DNA of 64,000 nt from an uncultured Clostridia bacterium (lineage in GTDB: Bacteria > Bacillota > Clostridia > TANB77 > CAG-508): positions 165,082 to 229,081 of the forward strand of contig CAKOXT010000001.1 of NCBI GenBank assembly GCA_934130285.1, in the 5' to 3' direction. The position numbers and the translations under genes are program-made. Shown piece after piece: positions 2,255 through 54,659 of this stretch (position 1 is its first letter; every line of letters begins with the position of its first letter). The notes under the pieces are model-generated. The model ran no database searches. It was not told the origin of the DNA and saw only the letters and a list, made by a program, of their open reading frames with translations.

Positions 2255-3040
2255 ATGGGAGTACTTAAGACAACACAAGATCTAGTTACACTTATGGGTG
2301 ATTTGTCTGAAATAGAGGCAAACAAATTATTATTATGGGCAACGATTTATACTAGAAAAGTTGAAGAAATAAAAGAAAAAAAGTTGAAAGAATTAAAAAA
2401 ATATTTTGATGAACAGATAGCTTTTTATAAAAGAAGTTCACAAAAATATGCAAAAGAATATGAGAAATTGTATGCAAAATATGAAGAAAGTATTGACAAA
2501 TTATATCAACAATATAATGTATATTATCAATATATTCAAAATGAAAATGTTTTTGCTCAAACTAATCAAAAAATAGCAATTGCTAATTTTGTTGTTAGTA
2601 AAAGAGCTGCAACAAAGGCAAAAACTGATAATAATATTGTTTTGGAAGAAAAATCAAATAAAAAAGTATTTGCAACAGCTCAAAAGAAATTGAATTATGA
2701 TGTTGTTATTAATGAATGTAGTGCAAGATTGGAAAAATGTATGGAAGATACATATACTGACATGAATAAGATTTTTGATATTTCAAGTATGTTGATCTCT
2801 GTAAAAAAAGAGAAGTATTTAGATAAATTTTTTAATTTTTTCAAAATTAAATTTTCTGGAGAAAAGAGTTTTAAAGAGTTTGTTTTGGAACCATTAAAAG
2901 CAAGAATCGACAATATTGAAAAACTTTCTATTACAAGAGCTTCTGAAGTTAAAATCGATATGCTAGTATTTATAGGACAAATGGAGAAAATCAGAGGTGA
3001 TATTAATTTAGCTTTTAATGAAACTTTAAATAAGAATTAA
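2255..3040 (+). CDS. hypothetical coiled-coil protein
   Basis: ORF with an AGGAGAAG RBS. It is Lys/Glu-rich with heptad-like stretches and has no recognisable domain. Confidence 0.55.
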   Translation: MGVLKTTQDLVTLMGDLSEIEANKLLLWATIYTRKVEEIKEKKLKELKKYFDEQIAFYKRSSQKYAKEYEKLYAKYEESIDKLYQQYNVYYQYIQNENVFAQTNQKIAIANFVVSKRAATKAKTDNNIVLEEKSNKKVFATAQKKLNYDVVINECSARLEKCMEDTYTDMNKIFDISSMLISVKKEKYLDKFFNFFKIKFSGEKSFKEFVLEPLKARIDNIEKLSITRASEVKIDMLVFIGQMEKIRGDINLAFNETLNKN

Positions 3041-6184: not shown

Positions 6185-7312
6185 ATGGGAAAAAAAGATA
6201 CAAATGTTAAAAAATCAAAGAAGGTGAAGCGTGCAAAAAGGAAGGGTACATTTGCAAAAATTTTACTTATTGTATTAATATTGGCATTGATAGGAATTAT
6301 ATCATTACTGTTTTTATTATATGGCCCATGGAGTGGATTTAGAGATTGGTTAATAACAACGGCAATGTCTTCAATGAGACACCAATATTTAGCTACATGG
6401 TTTTATGATGATAAAACTATTCAAGAGTGTTTAAATAAAAATAAGGTTGTAGAAGTTAGTGGCGTTACTGATGAAAACACAATTGAAATTGTTGATTATG
6501 ACAAAAAAGAAGAAGTTGTTTATGCCAATGAGTACGAAAGACAAATTTTAGAAAAAGATGAAAATAATAATGATTATAAAATAATAAAAATAGATGGCGG
6601 AAATGATTATGAAGGGTATATGGCAGTTATATATGATCCGTCTAGAATTGAAGTTGCTACATCATCTTATATAGGAAGAAGCGGAGAATATTTAACAGAT
6701 ATTTCAAAGAAGAATAATGCTTTGGTTGCTATAAATGGTGGAGGTTTTATTGATGAGAATAATAAAGGAAGTGGAGCTACTCCACTAGGAATTACTATGA
6801 GCAAAGGAAAGTTATTAAGTAATTCCGGTGGTACATTCGGATTGATAGGATTCAATAATGAAAATAAATTGTTGTTGGGTAAGATTACTTCAACTCAAGC
6901 TAAACAAAGAGGAATACGTGATTGTGTTTCTTTTGGACCATATTTAATATTAAATGGTGAAAAATCGCAGATATATGGAAATGGTGGTTGGGGAAAAGCT
7001 CCAAGAACTGCTATTGGACAAAGAGCAGATGGAATAGTTCTATTCTTAGTGCTTGATGGAAATAGAACATTAGGAAAAGGTGCTACAATTAAAGATATGA
7101 TTGAAATATTTGAAAGATATGGTGCGATAAATGCTTCAAATTTGGATGGAGGAACATCTACATCTATGACTGTAAAAGGAAAGACTGTTAATAATCCAAC
7201 TAATTTGTCAGGTGGAAGTGGAACAAGACCTATACCATCAGCATTTATATTAAAAGCAGATGATTCTGATGATGGTGATTATAGCGCAGTAAAAAATAAG
7301 GTAGATAAATAA
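6185..7312 (+). CDS. phosphodiester glycosidase family protein (NAGPA-like, DUF2233)
   Basis: N-terminal basic/TM anchor. Conserved NGGGF and DGGTSTSM motifs typical of this family. Confidence 0.65.
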   Translation: MGKKDTNVKKSKKVKRAKRKGTFAKILLIVLILALIGIISLLFLLYGPWSGFRDWLITTAMSSMRHQYLATWFYDDKTIQECLNKNKVVEVSGVTDENTIEIVDYDKKEEVVYANEYERQILEKDENNNDYKIIKIDGGNDYEGYMAVIYDPSRIEVATSSYIGRSGEYLTDISKKNNALVAINGGGFIDENNKGSGATPLGITMSKGKLLSNSGGTFGLIGFNNENKLLLGKITSTQAKQRGIRDCVSFGPYLILNGEKSQIYGNGGWGKAPRTAIGQRADGIVLFLVLDGNRTLGKGATIKDMIEIFERYGAINASNLDGGTSTSMTVKGKTVNNPTNLSGGSGTRPIPSAFILKADDSDDGDYSAVKNKVDK

Positions 7313-7372
7313 AGATATAAAATAGGTATTTATGATTTCTGTATTGCGTTATTATAAATAGAATAAGTGATT

Positions 7373-7407
7373 AAAAAATAGCAGATTAATAGTCTGCTAT
7401 TTTTGTG
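7373..7407. terminator. bidirectional terminator (agcaga...tctgct) between convergent genes
   Basis: Hairpin flanked by an A-run and a T-run. Confidence 0.55.
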
Positions 7408-7717
7408 TGTTACGATAGTTATTTCCCCATTTAACCATTGAATCTAAAATTGGTTGTAAACTCCAACCAGTATCTGTAAGAGAATATTCTACTCTTGGAG
7501 GAACTTCTGCAAAAACTTCGCGATGAACCAAACCTGATTTTTCCATATCTCTTAAATTATTGGTTAGAACCTTTTGACTTATTCCAGTAAGGGATTTTCT
7601 AAGTTCACCAAATCTTTTTTTACCAGTTAATAAGTCACGAATAATTAATATTTTCCATTTATCTCCTATAAGTCCCATTGTAATTTCAACTGGACAAGCT
7701 GGCAATTCAGTTTTCAT
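7397..7717 (-). CDS. HxlR-family (DUF24, MarR-like winged helix) transcriptional regulator
   Basis: CPVE...GDKWK...FGEL...ISQKVLTNNLR...GLVHREV...VEYSLT signature. Confidence 0.85.
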   Translation of the reverse strand: MKTELPACPVEITMGLIGDKWKILIIRDLLTGKKRFGELRKSLTGISQKVLTNNLRDMEKSGLVHREVFAEVPPRVEYSLTDTGWSLQPILDSMVKWGNNYRNTQK

Positions 7718-7875
7718 TATAATTCAACTCCATTCTTTTTATCTATAAAAAGTATAACAAATTAATTTCGAAATGTAAACAAAATACTGTAAAATCAGCG
7801 ATACTTTCTTTTGGAATGTAATAGCAATATAAGTATACAATAAAATTTTATAAAGCGGAACTATTGAAAATACAT

Positions 7876-7946
7876 AAGAGTTACTTTAAGGTAACTATGA
7901 AACAAAAAAGTGCCTACTTTACAAGTGCTTTAGGTAAAATTAAAAT
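7876..7946 (+). promoter_or_regulatory. copy 1 of a 47-bp regulatory module: inverted repeat AGTTAC-N6-GTAACT (7879-7896) plus TTTACA-17-TAAAAT promoter (7918-7946)
   Basis: Near-identical to the copy at 8842-8909. It lies in the divergent region between the hxlR-like gene and gene 8010. Confidence 0.6.
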
Positions 7947-8009
7947 GGTTTTAGAAATTGAAAATAGAGTAGCTACTAATTCAATAAATATAATAAGGAG
8001 TGAATAAAA

Positions 8010-8804
8010 ATGGAGAATAAAAAAATAAATTTAGGAAAAGGAATTATTGAGATTTATGATTTTGGAGACATAAAATTACATTGCTATCAAACAAATGATT
8101 TTATGAATGATGAAAGTTACATTTTAGAAAATGCTGAAAATGTTTTATTAGTAGAATTCCCTGCATTTTATGATAATTTGGAAGAGTTTGAAAAATATGT
8201 TATAGGATTAAATGAGAATATAGTTGGAAAAGTATTTTCTGATCATCCAAATGGAGCTACTATTTTAAAAGATGTTAAAGGATATGCTTCAGAAGGTACT
8301 ATAAGATCAATGAAAGCAGGAACAATTCATAATTTAGTAACTGGATTTGAAAAATCTTTTAATGGAGCGTTTGCTAAAGAATTGCACGAGATTACTGATG
8401 TATTAAAAGATGAACATGTTAATATAGGAGGCTTTGAATTAAATTTAACTTATCATGATGAGAACGTAGAAATTGAATTTCCTCAAATAGGATGTGTATA
8501 TACTCATATGCTAGGACATGATTGTCATTCAATAGTTGCAGGAGAAGAACATGCAAATGCAATTATAAATCAATTGAAAGAATATAAAAATAAGGGATAC
8601 AGATTGGTTTTATCAAGTCATTATGTACCAGAGACTTTGAAAGATGTTGATACTAAGATTGATTATCTTGAAAATTTAAAAGAATTGGCAAAGGAAAGTG
8701 AAAATGCTGAGGTGTTTGAGAAGAAGGTTAAGGATAGATATCCTGAGTATAGTGGTTTAAATTATTTGGATATGACAGCTGGATTTTTCTTTCCAAATAA
8801 ATAA
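8010..8804 (+). CDS. hypothetical protein (His-rich motifs, possible metal-dependent hydrolase fold)
   Basis: ORF with an AGGAG RBS. Contains YTHMLGHDCH and SSHY motifs but no canonical HxHxDH. Confidence 0.5.
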   Translation: MENKKINLGKGIIEIYDFGDIKLHCYQTNDFMNDESYILENAENVLLVEFPAFYDNLEEFEKYVIGLNENIVGKVFSDHPNGATILKDVKGYASEGTIRSMKAGTIHNLVTGFEKSFNGAFAKELHEITDVLKDEHVNIGGFELNLTYHDENVEIEFPQIGCVYTHMLGHDCHSIVAGEEHANAIINQLKEYKNKGYRLVLSSHYVPETLKDVDTKIDYLENLKELAKESENAEVFEKKVKDRYPEYSGLNYLDMTAGFFFPNK

Positions 8805-8841
8805 TTAAATATAATTTTGCTATTTTGATATATATGCTAAA

Positions 8842-8909
8842 AGTTACTTTAAGGTAACTATGGAACAAAAAAGTGCCTACTTTACAATATGTAAGGTAGG
8901 TTTTAAAAT
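8842..8909 (+). promoter_or_regulatory. copy 2 of the 47-bp module: inverted repeat (8842-8859) plus TTTACA-17-TAAAAT promoter (8881-8909)
   Basis: 46 of 47 bp identical to copy 1. Upstream of the macrodomain-sirtuin operon. Confidence 0.6.
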
Positions 8910-8938
8910 ATATCTTATAGAAAATTAAGAGGTAGTAA

Positions 8939-9730
8939 ATGGATAATTTGGATTATTTAATAAAATATTTGTTAGAAGAAAACAAAAATATTGATATTGA
9001 AGAGATTCCTAAAGATTTGAAAGAAAAACAAAAGTTATATCGTTCATTATGTAATGTTAGAGATGCTATGCCAATATCAGAGAAGTATTTGGAAGTTGAG
9101 AATGAATATTTACAAGAAGAAATTAAGAAAAGAGATATTGTTGATTTAAAAGGTATATCTAGTAGTATTGTTGATGGTAGCACGAAGATTAGTTTATGGA
9201 AAGGTGATATTACTTTGCTTAAAATTGATTGTATTGTTAATGCTGCTAATTCTCAAGGGTTAGGATGTTTTATCCCTTGCCATAAGTGTATTGATAATAT
9301 TATTCATTCTACTGCTGGAGTTCAGTTAAGAATTGCATGTAACGAAAAGATGAAGAATATCGGTATATTAAAAACTGGAGAAGTGTTTTTAACAAAAGGA
9401 TATAATTTACCAGCAAGATTTGTTATTCATACAGTAGGACCTATTATTCATAATGTTGTGACAAAAAAGGAAAAAGCAGAATTAGAGAAGTGTTATATTA
9501 ATTCATTAAAGATAGCTAAAGATGCTGGAATAAAAAATATAGCTTTTTGTTGTATTTCAACAGGTGAGTTTAGATTCCCAAAAGATTTAGCAAGTGAAAT
9601 TGCTGTGAAAGCGGTAAAAAAATTTTTAAAACAAAATGAAGATTTTTTTGAAATGATTATTTTTGATGTATTTTCAGATGAGGATTATGATATTTACTTA
9701 GAAAAATTAGGTGATGTATATGGAATATAA
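8939..9730 (+). CDS. macrodomain protein (ADP-ribose binding / ADP-ribosyl hydrolase, MacroD-like) with about 80-aa N-terminal extension
   Basis: Macro motifs IVNAANSQGLGC and ISTGEFRFP. Overlaps the next gene by 20 nt. Confidence 0.8.
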   Translation: MDNLDYLIKYLLEENKNIDIEEIPKDLKEKQKLYRSLCNVRDAMPISEKYLEVENEYLQEEIKKRDIVDLKGISSSIVDGSTKISLWKGDITLLKIDCIVNAANSQGLGCFIPCHKCIDNIIHSTAGVQLRIACNEKMKNIGILKTGEVFLTKGYNLPARFVIHTVGPIIHNVVTKKEKAELEKCYINSLKIAKDAGIKNIAFCCISTGEFRFPKDLASEIAVKAVKKFLKQNEDFFEMIIFDVFSDEDYDIYLEKLGDVYGI

Positions 9731-10556
9731 AGATAGAATTTTAAAAGTAAGAGATTTATTAAAAGAAGCGGATTATGTTTTAATTGGCGCTGGTGCAGGT
9801 TTATCTACAGCTGCTGGTATGGAATATAGTGGAGAGAGCTTTGAAAAAAACTATAGAGAATTTATTGATAAATATTATTTCGATAATTTGTATTCTGCAT
9901 CTTTTTATGATTTTAAGACTCAGGAGGAAAAGTGGGCTTTTTTTGCGAAGATGATTAAATTGAATAGATATAATGATAAGCCTTTACAGTTATATCAAGA
10001 GCTTTATGAATTAGTTTGTTCAAAGGATTATTTTGTGTTATCTACGAATGTTGATGGACAATTTTATAATAGTGGGTTTGATGCTGAAAGAGTGTTTGAG
10101 ATTCAGGGAGATTACTGCTTTTTACAATGTGAAAATGCATGCCATGATAAATTGTATTATAATAAAGAATTAGTAGAGAAATGGATACAAAATACAAAAG
10201 ATTGTAAGATTCTGTCTGACTTGGTTATGAAATGTCCAGTTTGTGGCGGAAATATGGATATGAATTTAAGAAAAGATGCTAATTTTGTGCAAGATAAGAA
10301 TTGGCATGTTCAAGCAAAAAAATATGAGGAGTTTATTAATAATGCTAAAGATAAAAAAATGGTGTTGTTAGAAATAGGAGTTGGATTTAATACTCCTGGT
10401 ATTATTAGGTTTCCTTTTGAGAGAATGGTAGAAGAAAATGAAGATACATATTTAGTTAGAATTAATAAAGAGTATCCTTCTGCAATATTAGATATAAATG
10501 ATAAGTTAGTTTCTTTTAATGAGAATGTAAGTAAAATAATAGGAGATTTGAAATGA
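9711..10556 (+). CDS. SIR2-family protein, SirTM-like (macrodomain-linked sirtuin, predicted protein ADP-ribosyltransferase)
   Basis: Rossmann motif GAGAGLSTAAG, TNVDGQF motif and a Cys-rich zinc ribbon (CFLQCENAC...CPVCGG). The operonic link with the macrodomain is the class-M hallmark. Confidence 0.7.
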   Translation: MMYMEYKDRILKVRDLLKEADYVLIGAGAGLSTAAGMEYSGESFEKNYREFIDKYYFDNLYSASFYDFKTQEEKWAFFAKMIKLNRYNDKPLQLYQELYELVCSKDYFVLSTNVDGQFYNSGFDAERVFEIQGDYCFLQCENACHDKLYYNKELVEKWIQNTKDCKILSDLVMKCPVCGGNMDMNLRKDANFVQDKNWHVQAKKYEEFINNAKDKKMVLLEIGVGFNTPGIIRFPFERMVEENEDTYLVRINKEYPSAILDINDKLVSFNENVSKIIGDLK

Positions 10557-11491
10557 TTATAAATACTGGTTGCAGAACTGATATACCAGCTTTTTATTCA
10601 AAGTGGCTGATGAATAGAATTCATGAGGGCTATGTTTTAGTACGAAATCCTTATTATCCTGAACAGGTTATAAAATATAGATTAGATCCAAGTGTGGTAG
10701 ACGGTATGGATTTTTGTACGAAAAATCCAAAACCAATGTTGAAATATTTAGATGAATTAGATAAGTTTAGACAATACTGGTTTGTAACGATTACACCATA
10801 TGGTAAGGATATAGAACCTGTAGTACCGGATAAAGAAGAGGTAATAGAAAGTTTTAAAAAGTTGTCAGAACATGTTGGTGAGAATTGTGTTGGTTGGAGA
10901 TATGATCCAATTTTTATGAACGAAGATTTTGATGTTGATAAGCATATAGAGTGTTTTGAAAAAATGGCAAAACAGTTAAATGGATATACACATAATTGTA
11001 CAATTAGTTTTTTAGATTTGTATGAAAAAGTAAAAAGAAATGCGCCTGATTTAAGACAGCCTACTAAAGATGAGCAAATTAGAATCGCTAAGGCTTTTTA
11101 TAAAATAGGGAAAAAGAATAATATGGTGATATATAGCTGTTGCGAAAATAGTTATTTGGCCCAATATGGACTTAATTGTGAAGGTTGCAGAAGTCAAAGT
11201 TTAGTTGAGAAATCATTAGGTGTAAGCCTAAAACCGCCTAAGAGAAAGAGCTTGAGACAGCAATGTAATTGTTTAATGGGAAATGATATAGGTGCATATA
11301 ATACTTGTGGACATATGTGTAAGTATTGCTATGCAAATGAAAATAAGAAATTGGTTGTAGAGAATATGAAAAAACATGATGATAATTCACCTTTTTTAGT
11401 TGGAAGATTAAATAATGATGATATAGTTACAGAAGCTAATCAAAAGAGTTGGATTGTAAATAGGAATGAACAAATTTCTTTTTGGGGTTAA
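10553..11491 (+). CDS. DUF1848-like protein with C-terminal Cys cluster (CxxxCxxC)
   Basis: Start overlaps the sirtuin stop (ATGA). The N-terminus MIINTGCRTDIPAFYSKW is typical of DUF1848. C-terminal CNC...CGHMCKYC. Confidence 0.55.
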   Translation: MIINTGCRTDIPAFYSKWLMNRIHEGYVLVRNPYYPEQVIKYRLDPSVVDGMDFCTKNPKPMLKYLDELDKFRQYWFVTITPYGKDIEPVVPDKEEVIESFKKLSEHVGENCVGWRYDPIFMNEDFDVDKHIECFEKMAKQLNGYTHNCTISFLDLYEKVKRNAPDLRQPTKDEQIRIAKAFYKIGKKNNMVIYSCCENSYLAQYGLNCEGCRSQSLVEKSLGVSLKPPKRKSLRQQCNCLMGNDIGAYNTCGHMCKYCYANENKKLVVENMKKHDDNSPFLVGRLNNDDIVTEANQKSWIVNRNEQISFWG

Positions 11492-11555: not shown

Positions 11556-12146
11556 TTAGTTATAATTATTCATATAAAATTTCTTTTGGGCTAATTTTTC
11601 TTGAACACCATTTAATGCTTCACCAAATCTTTGGAAGTGGACTACTTCACGCTCTCTTAAGAAACGTAATGGATCTACGACGTCAGGATCGTCTGCACAA
11701 AGATCAATCAATTTTTCGTATGTTGCTCTAGCTTTTTGTTCTGCAGCAAGGTCTTCAGTTAAGTCGGTTACTGGATCACTTGTTACTTGAAGTGTGGCAG
11801 CACTAAAAGGTGTTCCACTAGCAGCTTGAGGATATGTTCCCCAACCATGATCAGTAAAGTAAGCACCTAGTCCTGCTTTTTCTAATTCTTCGGGACAAAC
11901 GCCGTCAGTTAATTGGTGAACCATACTACTTACCATTTCTAAGTGAGCTAGTTCTTCGGTGCCGATATCATTTAAAATGGCTTTTGATTTTTCATCTGGC
12001 ATACTTATTCTTTGAGAAATATATCTAAGAGCTGCGCCAATTTCGCCGTCTGGTCCACCATATTGTGAAATAATAAATTTGGCTAATCGTGGATTAGTGT
12101 TTTTTATTCTTACAGGATATTCTAATTTCTTTTGATATAACCACAT
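11556..12146 (-). CDS. cotJC: spore coat protein CotJC (manganese catalase-like)
   Basis: Mn-catalase fold residues (EELAHLEM, HFQRF). Third gene of a cotJ-type operon. Confidence 0.85.
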   Translation of the reverse strand: MWLYQKKLEYPVRIKNTNPRLAKFIISQYGGPDGEIGAALRYISQRISMPDEKSKAILNDIGTEELAHLEMVSSMVHQLTDGVCPEELEKAGLGAYFTDHGWGTYPQAASGTPFSAATLQVTSDPVTDLTEDLAAEQKARATYEKLIDLCADDPDVVDPLRFLREREVVHFQRFGEALNGVQEKLAQKKFYMNNYN

Positions 12147-12415
12147 TAGTAACTACCTCCTTTTTCCCAAGGCCATGGCTGTTCTAGCCAGCGCCATTTA
12201 TTACAAGGACATTCTATTGATAGAGGTCCATACATTTTTTGATAATTATCTGTTAACATTCTTAACTTGTTGGCATTTTCATTATGAAGACACAAAGCTC
12301 TTTTGTCATCTGGATTTATGTCTAAATATAGCCCAAGTTCAATAACGGTAAAGTTTACAGCTCGTATTTCATCTAACATTTCTGATCTTGTTTGTTGGCA
12401 ATTTCCGTCCATCAT
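12146..12415 (-). CDS. cotJB: spore coat protein CotJB
   Basis: Small protein with the CotJB-type sequence (VNFTVIELGLYLD...NPDD), overlapping cotJC. Confidence 0.8.
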   Translation of the reverse strand: MMDGNCQQTRSEMLDEIRAVNFTVIELGLYLDINPDDKRALCLHNENANKLRMLTDNYQKMYGPLSIECPCNKWRWLEQPWPWEKGGSY

Positions 12416-12777
12416 GAATTACAGCCACCTCCAATTGTATTTGAATTTTTTAAATAATTTATAGTTTCTAATGATTGATTTGGACAATATGGACTAACGA
12501 GTTCTGGGAAAATTGTGCCCATTTTTAATCCGATTTCTGGTGTGTATACTTGATTCATTCTTTGGTGAGGAACATAACAATGTCCATACATCCAATTTTG
12601 AGGGAATGCTGATGTGTTTGTAAAACCACATGAACATGTTGTGTCATTTTCCATATTTCCATAATTATAATTTTGAATCATGTTACAAGATTCTTCGTAC
12701 ATAGTATTTGACGTGAAACTATTGGTATCTGTATTGTTTGAAAGATTGTTATATGAACAATTACAATTTCTAAACAT
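12412..12777 (-). CDS. cotJA: spore coat-associated protein CotJA (with N-terminal Asn/Cys-rich extension)
   Basis: C-terminal CotJA-like motif (YVPHQ...GTIFPEL..PY). Overlaps cotJB by 4 nt. Confidence 0.65.
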   Translation of the reverse strand: MFRNCNCSYNNLSNNTDTNSFTSNTMYEESCNMIQNYNYGNMENDTTCSCGFTNTSAFPQNWMYGHCYVPHQRMNQVYTPEIGLKMGTIFPELVSPYCPNQSLETINYLKNSNTIGGGCNS

Positions 12778-45732: not shown

Positions 45733-45891
45733 CATAAAAAGTATATATTATTTTTTAAACATCTTGCTGTCGCAATCTTGATGAGCCTTCGGCTCTTTCA
45801 TTTGAAAAGATTGCTTCAATCGCAGTCACAAAGCTATGCTTTGTTCCTTTGATCGCTGCGCGATGTCTTAAAAATAGTATATACTTTTATG
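45733..45891. repeat. MITE-like palindromic repeat, copy A (AT-rich terminal inverted repeats, GC-rich structured core)
   Basis: About 95% identical to the core at 54507-54630. Ends CATAAAAAGTATATATTATTTTTT / AAAAATAGTATATACTTTTATG are inverted repeats. Confidence 0.7.
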
Positions 45892-54475: not shown

Positions 54476-54659
54476 ACAAAAAAGAAAATATATATTATTT
54501 TTTCATACCTTGCTGTCGCAATCTTGATGAGCCTCTGTTCTTTCAGAACAACGGCTCTTTCATTTGAAAAGATTGCTTCAATCGCAGTCACAAAGCCTTG
54601 CTTTGTTCCTTTGGTCGCTGCGCGGTAGTTCAAAAATTAATATATATTTTCTTTTTTGT
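54476..54659. repeat. MITE-like palindromic repeat, copy B
   Basis: Core matches copy A apart from an 18-nt hairpin-extending insertion. Terminal inverted repeats ACAAAAAAGAAAATATATATTATTTTTT / AAAAATTAATATATATTTTCTTTTTTGT. Confidence 0.7.

Follow-up and report, generated by a model that had tools for sequence, protein, structure and literature searches.

A duplicated two-box operator-promoter module beside a one-cysteine HxlR-type regulator gene probably joins a 264-residue protein and a Zn-Macro/SirTM operon in one regulon

Can a short block of DNA that stands in two copies before two neighbouring transcription units place both under one regulator, and would that regulator switch them on or off? 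The question is raised by a locus in a 64,000-nucleotide (nt) stretch of DNA from an uncultured Clostridia bacterium (assembly GCA_934130285.1, contig CAKOXT010000001.1, positions 165,082 to 229,081), referred to here as the window. The repeated block precedes a gene for a 264-amino-acid (aa) protein and an operon encoding a macrodomain protein, a SirTM-class sirtuin and a DUF1848 protein. An earlier note on this DNA had proposed that the 264-aa gene and the operon form a small regulon, which is strongly supported by phylogenetic footprinting and gene linkage in more than 150 related loci. Sequence comparison makes it highly probable that the two promoters constitute a regulon controlled by an HxlR-type protein. 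The more specific reading preferred here, with a probability of roughly 0.5, is that the repeat is the cognate operator-promoter module of the divergent one-cysteine (one-Cys) HxlR/DUF24 regulator, which would act by activation.

A repeat search identified the block as a 50-nt direct repeat, with copies 963 nt apart and identical at 48 of 50 positions (Table 1); they differ at 7878/8841 (G/A) and at 7900/8863 (A/G). The duplication of a promoter/operator sequence described in the earlier note is therefore real, but the 49-nt string given there has two mismatches between the copies rather than one, and its second copy lies at 8839-8887, 2 nt lower than the 8841-8889 that had been assigned. Each copy contains an 18-base-pair (bp) palindrome, AGTTACTTTAAGGTAACT, termed box 1. 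The inverted repeat AGTTAC-N6-GTAACT and its position upstream of TTTACA-17-TAAAAT, also described previously, were recovered by motif and promoter scans. With up to one mismatch this inverted repeat occurs at only two places in the 64 kb, compared with 0.11 expected from shuffled sequences. Both copies are followed by −35 and −10 hexamers whose 17-nt spacer falls within the 16-18 nt required of a sigma-70/sigma-A promoter, and the predicted transcription starts are A7953 for P1 and a position near 8916-8917 for P2. Other promoter candidates ahead of box 1 (TTGAAA or TTGATA with TAAGGT) were rejected on inspection of the sequence, their register being shifted by 2 nt between copies and unconserved. 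A third exact match to the core sequence GTGCNTACTTTAC, at 11854-11866 on the minus strand, was attributed to chance because it lies within the cotJC coding sequence (residues GAYFT) and lacks the boxes.

Table 1. Features of the locus, with positions in the window
Feature	Position	Strand	Basis
hxlR-type regulator gene, 106 aa, one-Cys, Cys8 in ACPVE	7397-7717	−	Pfam HxlR
Predicted hxlR promoter, TTTACA-17-TATACT, TG before −10, separate from module	7751-7779	−	Consensus scan
Module copy 1 (50-nt repeat unit)	7875-7924	+	Repeat search
Box 1, copy 1, AGTTAC-TTTAAG-GTAACT, centre about −65.5	7879-7896	+	Motif scan
36-codon open reading frame starting inside module copy 1, probably not a gene	7897-8007	+	Annotated by gene callers
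Box 2, copy 1, GAAAC-AAAAAA-GTGCC, centre about −46.5	7899-7914	+	Profile of protein-chosen loci
Predicted promoter P1: −35 TTTACA 7918-7923, 17-nt spacer, −10 TAAAAT 7941-7946	7918-7946	+	Consensus scan
10-bp perfect palindrome AGTAGCTACT in predicted 5′ untranslated region of 264-aa gene	7970-7979	+	Read from sequence
264-aa protein, predicted divergent metallo-beta-lactamase fold	8010-8804	+	AlphaFold2 and Foldseek
Module copy 2: box 1 8842-8859, box 2 8862-8877	8838-8887	+	Repeat search
12-bp hairpin specific to copy 2, then UUU	8875-8901	+	RNA fold, −14.7 kcal/mol, z = −4.9
Predicted promoter P2: −35 TTTACA 8881-8886, 17-nt spacer, −10 TAAAAT 8904-8909	8881-8909	+	Consensus scan
Zn-macrodomain protein-ADP-ribose hydrolase	8939-9730	+	NF003163, 323 bits (cut-off 272 bits)
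SirTM-class sirtuin; gene callers start at ATG 9720	9711-10556	+	PDB 5A3A, 3e-57
DUF1848 protein, last operon gene	10553-11491	+	Pfam PF08902, 1.4e-98

The block is conserved well beyond this genome. Contigs of two other species that encode homologues of the 264-aa protein carry it upstream of that gene, with hxlR divergent in both. Alignment of the three species showed conservation of the half-sites GTTAC/GTAAC with a variable N6 spacer, an invariant 23-nt stretch (ACAAAAAAGTGCCTACTTTACAA) and a TAAAAT that stays in place although the 17-nt spacer between −35 and −10 has diverged. The 20-mer AAAAAAGTGCCTACTTTACA, used as query against one genome per species, matched 114 stretches of species-representative genomes from several phyla; record titles included Clostridia, Ruminococcus, Oscillospiraceae, Elusimicrobia, Spirochaetes, Leptotrichia, Megamonas, Gastranaerophilales and others. 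Two of the 114 (L020 and L031) were set aside as coding coincidences, because the gene they fall in appears, by eye, to be of the pyrB type. A divergent open reading frame (ORF) was present on the left flank of 88 module sites and was an HxlR ortholog, 46-92 % identical, in 76 of them. Among 108 distinct modules the −10 lies exactly 17 nt after TTTACA (T94 A92.. A89 T90). An A located 7 nt past the −10 is conserved in 93 of the 108 and is the likely transcription start, which therefore places the centre of box 1 at about −65.5.

Because the 20-mer scan is biased by construction, a second sample of 80 metagenome loci was drawn by HxlR protein only (64-89 % identity). The core GTGCNTACTTTAC, allowing up to two mismatches, was found upstream of and divergent from hxlR in 55 of the 77 loci with usable upstream sequence. 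A profile of 52 distinct sequences from this sample revealed a near-perfect palindrome, GGCAC-AATATT-GTGCY, spanning positions −5 to +10 of the 20-mer coordinate. This second box (box 2), 19 bp downstream of box 1, repeats its 5-6-5 geometry and abuts the −35, ending 3 bp before it; the family consensus GGCAC-N6-GTGCY compares with GAAAC-AAAAAA-GTGCC in the window. Directly 3′ of box 2 in the profile is TACTTTAC(A/G), which contains the −35. The protein-chosen loci had no insertions or deletions between box 1, box 2, −35 and −10, and the −35 of the profiled modules was always TTTAC(A/G) and never TTGACA. Half-sites were conserved and the spacer free in both the 108 and the 52 distinct modules. 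An inverted repeat in the divergent intergenic region, conserved together with the regulator, is the feature by which a DUF24-type operator was tested for, and it is present here. The class-I activator position proposed in the earlier note holds for box 1 but not for the site overall, since the overlooked second palindrome abuts the −35 and such a position fits only half of the site. The possibility that the motif is a dispersed repeat with no link to promoters was checked, and the motif proved to be rigidly placed with respect to the promoter and not dispersed.

The divergent gene does encode an HxlR-family protein, as had been supposed: it lies on the minus strand and matches PF01638 (HxlR) with an E value of 1.2e-34 over positions 1-89 of 91. 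The top NCBIfam model is RrpB (NF047364, 5e-40), at 136 bits against a cut-off of 175 bits, and the closest sequences in PDB are HypR (4A5M, 8e-29) and HxlR (7BZE, 2e-27). Cys8, in the motif ACPV, is the sole invariant cysteine in 14 orthologs and aligns with Cys14 of HypR. In the alignment with HypR the second cysteine of that protein, Cys49, has no equivalent (KSLTGIS here, RICPSIT in HypR). The Cys-x-Lys pair used in formaldehyde sensing is also absent, with Val two positions after the cysteine (A-C-P-V-E). Because both the Cys49 partner and the Cys-x-Lys pair are missing, a one-Cys switch responding to thiol oxidation or alkylation is the likely input, and the aldehyde stress suggested in the earlier note is less likely than these, given the missing Cys-x-Lys pair. 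Residues preceding the recognition helix (ITQ or ISQ) co-vary with the right half-site (GAAAC or GTAAC), which weakly supports binding. Both hexamer blocks of the predicted hxlR promoter are conserved in the three-species alignment, and the search for extra boxes near this promoter in the window gave only matches with two mismatches. Compact relatives (e.g. L143, L153, L158, L179 and L187) have a different layout, with the hxlR ribosome-binding site directly against box 1; 29 of 169 modules have a minus-strand TTGNNN-17-TATAAT and a cargo promoter that use one −10 on opposite strands. Promoters that share a −10 in this way would be mutually exclusive, and both boxes would lie within the hxlR leader.

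The second copy appears to be young. The closest relatives, 77-81 % identical in nucleotide sequence through hxlR, module and 264-aa gene, have one module only, with a hairpin-containing gap of 57-66 nt between the 264-aa and macrodomain genes instead of copy 2. Judged against these relatives, copy 2 is a recent, lineage-specific duplication. The copies are alike even where the sequence is free to vary, as in the N6 spacer, and their similarity ends abruptly after TTTACAA. None of 200 shuffles was as stable as the hairpin at copy 2, and the equivalent stretch of copy 1 is unfolded. The hairpin consists of the −35 region paired with an inverted copy of itself in the P2 spacer; its stem is followed by only three to four U, and it was not called by the terminator scan. 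We infer that it is a trace of (snap-back) duplication, possibly acting now as a weak terminator for the P1/264-aa transcript. A different hairpin occupies this intergenic position in relatives (L006, 5796-5852).

A same-species variant (L004, 98-99 % nucleotide identity) lacks exactly the 963 bp between the repeats (window 7925-8837 compared with L004 5794-5843). The one module it retains is a hybrid, matching copy 1 in its left flank and variants and copy 2 in its right flank, which is what homologous recombination between the 50-bp direct repeats would produce. The deletion allele was found in 2 of the 24 contigs read, so that presence of the 264-aa gene is polymorphic. Two modules 963 nt apart were found at none of the genome-scan loci; an independent two-module layout, with an aldo-keto-reductase-like gene in between, occurs in a different lineage (L027 and L075). 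L004 also carries a Nudix hydrolase gene between the DUF1848 gene and cotJC, and a TetR gene with an ABC2/DUF3533 membrane-protein gene (2397-3011 and 9348-12030 of L004), all absent from the window, which points to further strain-level differences in gene content around the locus. A megablast match of L010 to the module and 264-aa gene only, at first suggestive of a mobile cassette, was a sensitivity artefact; blastn gave a contiguous match of 77-81 % through hxlR.

The gene assignments of the earlier note (HxlR, 264-aa ORF, macrodomain, sirtuin and DUF1848) hold in Pfam and NCBIfam searches. The 264-aa protein has 2582 homologues and no sequence match in Pfam, NCBIfam or PDB. Its AlphaFold2 model has a predicted local distance difference test (pLDDT) score of 87.6, and the top 50 Foldseek matches in PDB are all chains of metallo-beta-lactamases or their superfamily (E 7e-10 to 1e-8; template-modelling score 0.45-0.66; about 12 % identity). 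An alpha-beta/beta-alpha sandwich of the metallo-beta-lactamase type is therefore predicted from the model. The canonical metal motif HxHxDH was not seen by eye and Pfam Lactamase_B was not matched; D78, H166, H170, D171, C172, H173 and H204 are invariant. The macrodomain protein matches the Zn-Macro structures 8RSI (2e-71) and 5KIV (2e-65). The sirtuin, which gave a weak match to Pfam SIR2, matches 5A3A, the Streptococcus pyogenes SirTM structure. The two genes overlap at 9711-9730, as in a Zn-Macro/SirTM pair. The DUF1848 protein has no sequence relatives in PDB. Genes of the extended operons (GcvH-L, LplA/LplA2, OYE and luciferase-like monooxygenase) are absent, the operon being macro-SirTM-DUF1848 with cotJ genes and recJ as neighbours, and the pair is for that reason of the minimal SirTM/Zn-Macro type.

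The genes behind the module vary between genomes. In the genome scan the downstream gene encoded the 264-aa protein at 41 loci, a cupin of about 145 aa at 20, an NmrA-like NAD(P)H-binding protein at 12, Zn-Macro at seven, a radical-SAM/SPASM protein at five, and a nitronate monooxygenase and a quinone-oxidoreductase-like Zn-dependent alcohol dehydrogenase (Zn-ADH) at one each. The cupin, NmrA-like, nitronate monooxygenase and Zn-ADH cargo is typical of thiol/electrophile stress regulons. Where enough downstream sequence was available to read gene order, the module was followed by the 264-aa gene, macro and SirTM (with or without DUF1848) in 20 cases, by macro and SirTM (with or without DUF1848) in 15 and by the 264-aa gene alone in 15. 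Several modules precede macro-SirTM operons that have no adjacent hxlR, and two contigs of one metagenome-assembled genome (MAG) divide the system, L032 and L052 holding hxlR with the 264-aa gene on one and macro-SirTM on the other. This is how members of a regulon behave.

HxlR orthologs in MAGs labelled Elusimicrobia, Spirochaetes, Gastranaerophilales and Alphaproteobacteria are 56-67 % identical to the window protein (loci in the L014-L127 set), and the 20-nt DNA block is 100 % identical in these loci from other phyla; some MAG labels, e.g. Muribaculaceae, may be binning errors. The combination of this protein identity with an identical DNA block therefore suggests that the hxlR-module unit has spread horizontally between bacterial lineages. 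Transposase-like genes, judged by eye, flank some modules in place of cargo (a 427-aa protein in L040 and a 153-aa helix-turn-helix protein in L026), and a transposase-like ORF of about 290 aa, also judged by eye, lies just upstream of the macro module in L052 (1289-2188) and L075 (1499-2371). The palindrome in the predicted 5′ untranslated region of the 264-aa gene is kept as GTAGCTAC in most Clostridia-type loci. Ruminococcus-type loci (e.g. L037, L054 and L087) have CAGCGCTG, AAGCGCTT or CAGTACTG at the equivalent place, about 20-30 nt past the predicted start. These substitutions preserve the palindrome and therefore suggest another site or an RNA stem. Elsewhere in the window, the cotJA-cotJB-cotJC spore-coat operon (with the Mn-catalase; 11556-12777, minus strand) is convergent with the DUF1848 gene. 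Only one other pair of long direct repeats was found across the window, at 45752-45875 and 54498-54637; these are intergenic, 37 + 86 nt long, about 90 % identical and 8.75 kb apart, have a higher G+C content than their surroundings and no Rfam match, and one frame resembles a protein-coding remnant.

Under the preferred reading, two regulator dimers would occupy the tandem boxes directly upstream of the −35, and modification of Cys8 by an oxidant or electrophile would switch the bound protein to promote recruitment of RNA polymerase, the mode being activation as in Bacillus subtilis HypR and HxlR. P1 would serve the 264-aa gene and P2 the Zn-Macro/SirTM/DUF1848 operon, as separately started units under one sensor. 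The 50-bp module would have been duplicated into the gap between the 264-aa and macrodomain genes, giving copy 2, and the two copies would offer a substrate for homologous recombination through which the 264-aa gene is lost in some strains. The sequences themselves show the anatomy of the module, its conservation and rigid spacing, its linkage to hxlR, the cargo families and the polymorphism; we infer HxlR binding to both boxes, the start positions, the thiol switch and the direction of regulation. Activation is suggested by conserved boxes that all lie strictly upstream of the −35 at invariant spacing and by a −35 that never takes the form TTGACA. By analogy it is also suggested by the closest solved homologues, HypR and HxlR, which are activators, and by the HypR box GTATC-AAAATT-GATAC, which shares the 5-6-5 geometry. 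Several points weigh against it. The best-scoring curated model, RrpB, is a one-Cys (Cys8) repressor of a divergent target. The promoter is near consensus (−35 five of six, 17-nt spacer, −10 at least five of six), which an activator-dependent promoter need not be, and a MarR-type dimer centred at −46.5 might just as well block access to the −35 or UP-element region. Because the half-sites of the two boxes differ (GTTAC and GGCAC), box 2 might be the target of something else. The switch in HypR is a Cys14-Cys49′ disulphide, and the regulator here has no counterpart of Cys49. Autoregulation is not evident in the window, since about 100 bp separate box 1 from the predicted hxlR promoter.

The same module and regulator might instead work with the opposite sign, reduced HxlR on boxes 1 and 2 repressing P1 and P2 by occlusion of the −35 or UP region or by looping, and modification of Cys8 releasing them, as in RrpB/YodB-type regulation. 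This is the most serious competitor, though we consider it somewhat unlikely. RrpB is the closest curated family (5e-40), and with its single Cys8 it represses the divergent nfrA and itself, H2O2 weakening the complex (PMC8765430). The regulator here is likewise of the one-Cys type with Cys8, the spacer of its near-consensus target promoter has the optimal 17 nt and box 2 stops 3 bp short of the −35. Set against this, none of about 160 distinct modules has a conserved box over the −10, spacer or start site, an invariant distance from boxes to −35 is seen more typically in stereospecific activation, the nearest solved homologues are activators and the RrpB score is under the curated cut-off. 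It is improbable that box 1 alone is the HxlR operator and that GTGC-N-TACTTTAC, with box 2, is read by another factor (for instance another regulator, or RNA polymerase through a special contact), giving two inputs. The differing half-sites (GGCAC/GTGCC in box 2, GTTAC/GTAAC in box 1) and a TACTTTAC more invariant than an ordinary −35 would agree with this, but box 2 accompanies this HxlR orthologous group in different phyla at an offset fixed at 19 bp, no gene for a second regulator is linked, and B. subtilis HxlR uses two tandem sites. HypR itself protects 43 bp, well beyond one inverted repeat (PMC3351151).

Two further explanations are both very improbable. The conserved block could act as an RNA or coding leader, in the form of a leader peptide (MKQKSAYFT...) or of a structured 5′ element whose transcript begins at a promoter farther upstream. 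Each copy has an ORF that opens at an ATG preceded by a weak AAGG, and pipelines call a 36-aa gene in copy 1; the ORF from the ATG inside copy 2 has 23 codons (8860-8928). A small hairpin can also form from box 1 (−5.9 kcal/mol, z = −2.6). However, a −10 follows the block at a constant distance and an A is conserved at +1, which puts the block upstream of the transcript, and no conserved promoter was found upstream of box 1. In relatives the ORF has 13, 23, 28 or 36 codons, contains frame-breaking indels or is fused to the 264-aa gene call (291- or 302-aa products), and the leader peptide was rejected because neither length nor frame is conserved. The RNA element was dropped because Rfam gave no relevant match, at E up to 1 for 7300-9300 or at gathering thresholds for the whole window. 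Alternatively, the repeats could be recombination sites or the ends of a mobile cassette carrying the 264-aa gene, as the variant without exactly the 963 bp bounded by them might suggest. That deletion is explained by ordinary homologous recombination between 50-bp direct repeats, however, and the closest relatives hold the 264-aa gene in the same place with one module, no recombinase is linked, and the module, always accompanied by hxlR and a promoter, precedes many cargo genes that are unrelated to one another.

If control by the HxlR-type protein is accepted, one likely redox sensor would govern the 264-aa protein and the protein ADP-ribosylation operon together. Minimal SirTM/Zn-Macro pairs would gain a predicted sensor, the one-Cys HxlR/HypR-like regulator, and a defined, mutable cis-element, while the recurrent partners (the metallo-beta-lactamase-fold protein and DUF1848) become candidate substrates or pathway members, so that the role of the minimal pairs becomes directly testable. 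The two-box operator/promoter model with its rigid spacing could predict regulon members in many uncultured gut anaerobes. The locus would also be a natural promoter duplication, in which doubling of a 50-bp module split an operon into two units and also made a substrate for recombination by which a gene is deleted in part of the population. More speculatively, and in our view rather doubtfully, the module may mark a redox/electrophile stress regulon common among anaerobes of several phyla and probably spread horizontally, in which minimal SirTM/Zn-Macro cooperates with DUF1848 and the 264-aa protein, either of which could be the missing ADP-ribosylation target or a pathway partner, and the two boxes with the −35 form a promoter switch.

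Systems that pair a MarR/DUF24 regulator and its palindromic operator with a divergent target are well known. The closest solved homologue is HypR (YybR) of B. subtilis, which acts on hypO and whose redox-active Cys14 aligns with Cys8 here. HypR activates from an operator, GTATC-AAAATT-GATAC, with a 43-bp protected region wholly upstream of the hypO promoter, and has a further box in its own leader (PMC3351151), an arrangement mirrored by the compact relatives with both boxes in the hxlR leader. The 5-6-5 inverted-repeat geometry is common to both systems. They differ in that HypR is a two-Cys sensor (Cys14-Cys49′) whereas the regulator here has no cysteine at the equivalent of Cys49, in the footprint (−95 to −53 for HypR, about −78 to −30 and abutting the −35 for the conserved block here), in the sequence-distinct second palindrome of box 2, and in the target, a nitroreductase for HypR but a metallo-beta-lactamase-fold protein and Zn-Macro/SirTM here. 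RrpB (Cj1556) and nfrA of Campylobacter jejuni resemble the present pair in the single Cys8 and the divergent arrangement of regulator and target. However, at 136 bits against the 175-bit cut-off the regulator here is not an RrpB equivalog, and the reported RrpB site, TTATAA-N17-TTATAA, is unlike the boxes. RrpB is a repressor, and its pair with nfrA gives a redox-responsive oxidative-stress regulon (PMC8765430).

HxlR of B. subtilis, for which two tandem upstream sites are reported, belongs to the same Pfam family (7BZE, 2e-27) and shares the divergent arrangement with hxlAB. It is a positive regulator of hxlAB and senses formaldehyde through a Cys11-Lys13 crosslink in helix alpha-1 (PMC7835342). 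A switch of this type is unlikely here because Val stands two positions after the cysteine (ACPVE). Described SirTM/Zn-Macro operons (Rack et al. 2015; PMC4518038, PMC11490716) have overlapping genes, as found here. The targets and physiological role of the minimal pairs are stated to be unknown, and extended SirTM systems have been connected to oxidative stress (PMC11490716). The SirTM literature found co-mentions neither HxlR nor DUF1848, in a search that did not cover the module sequence itself. Unlike the SirTM/Zn-Macro systems described, the pair in the window is linked to DUF1848, a predicted metallo-beta-lactamase-fold protein and an HxlR-type sensor.

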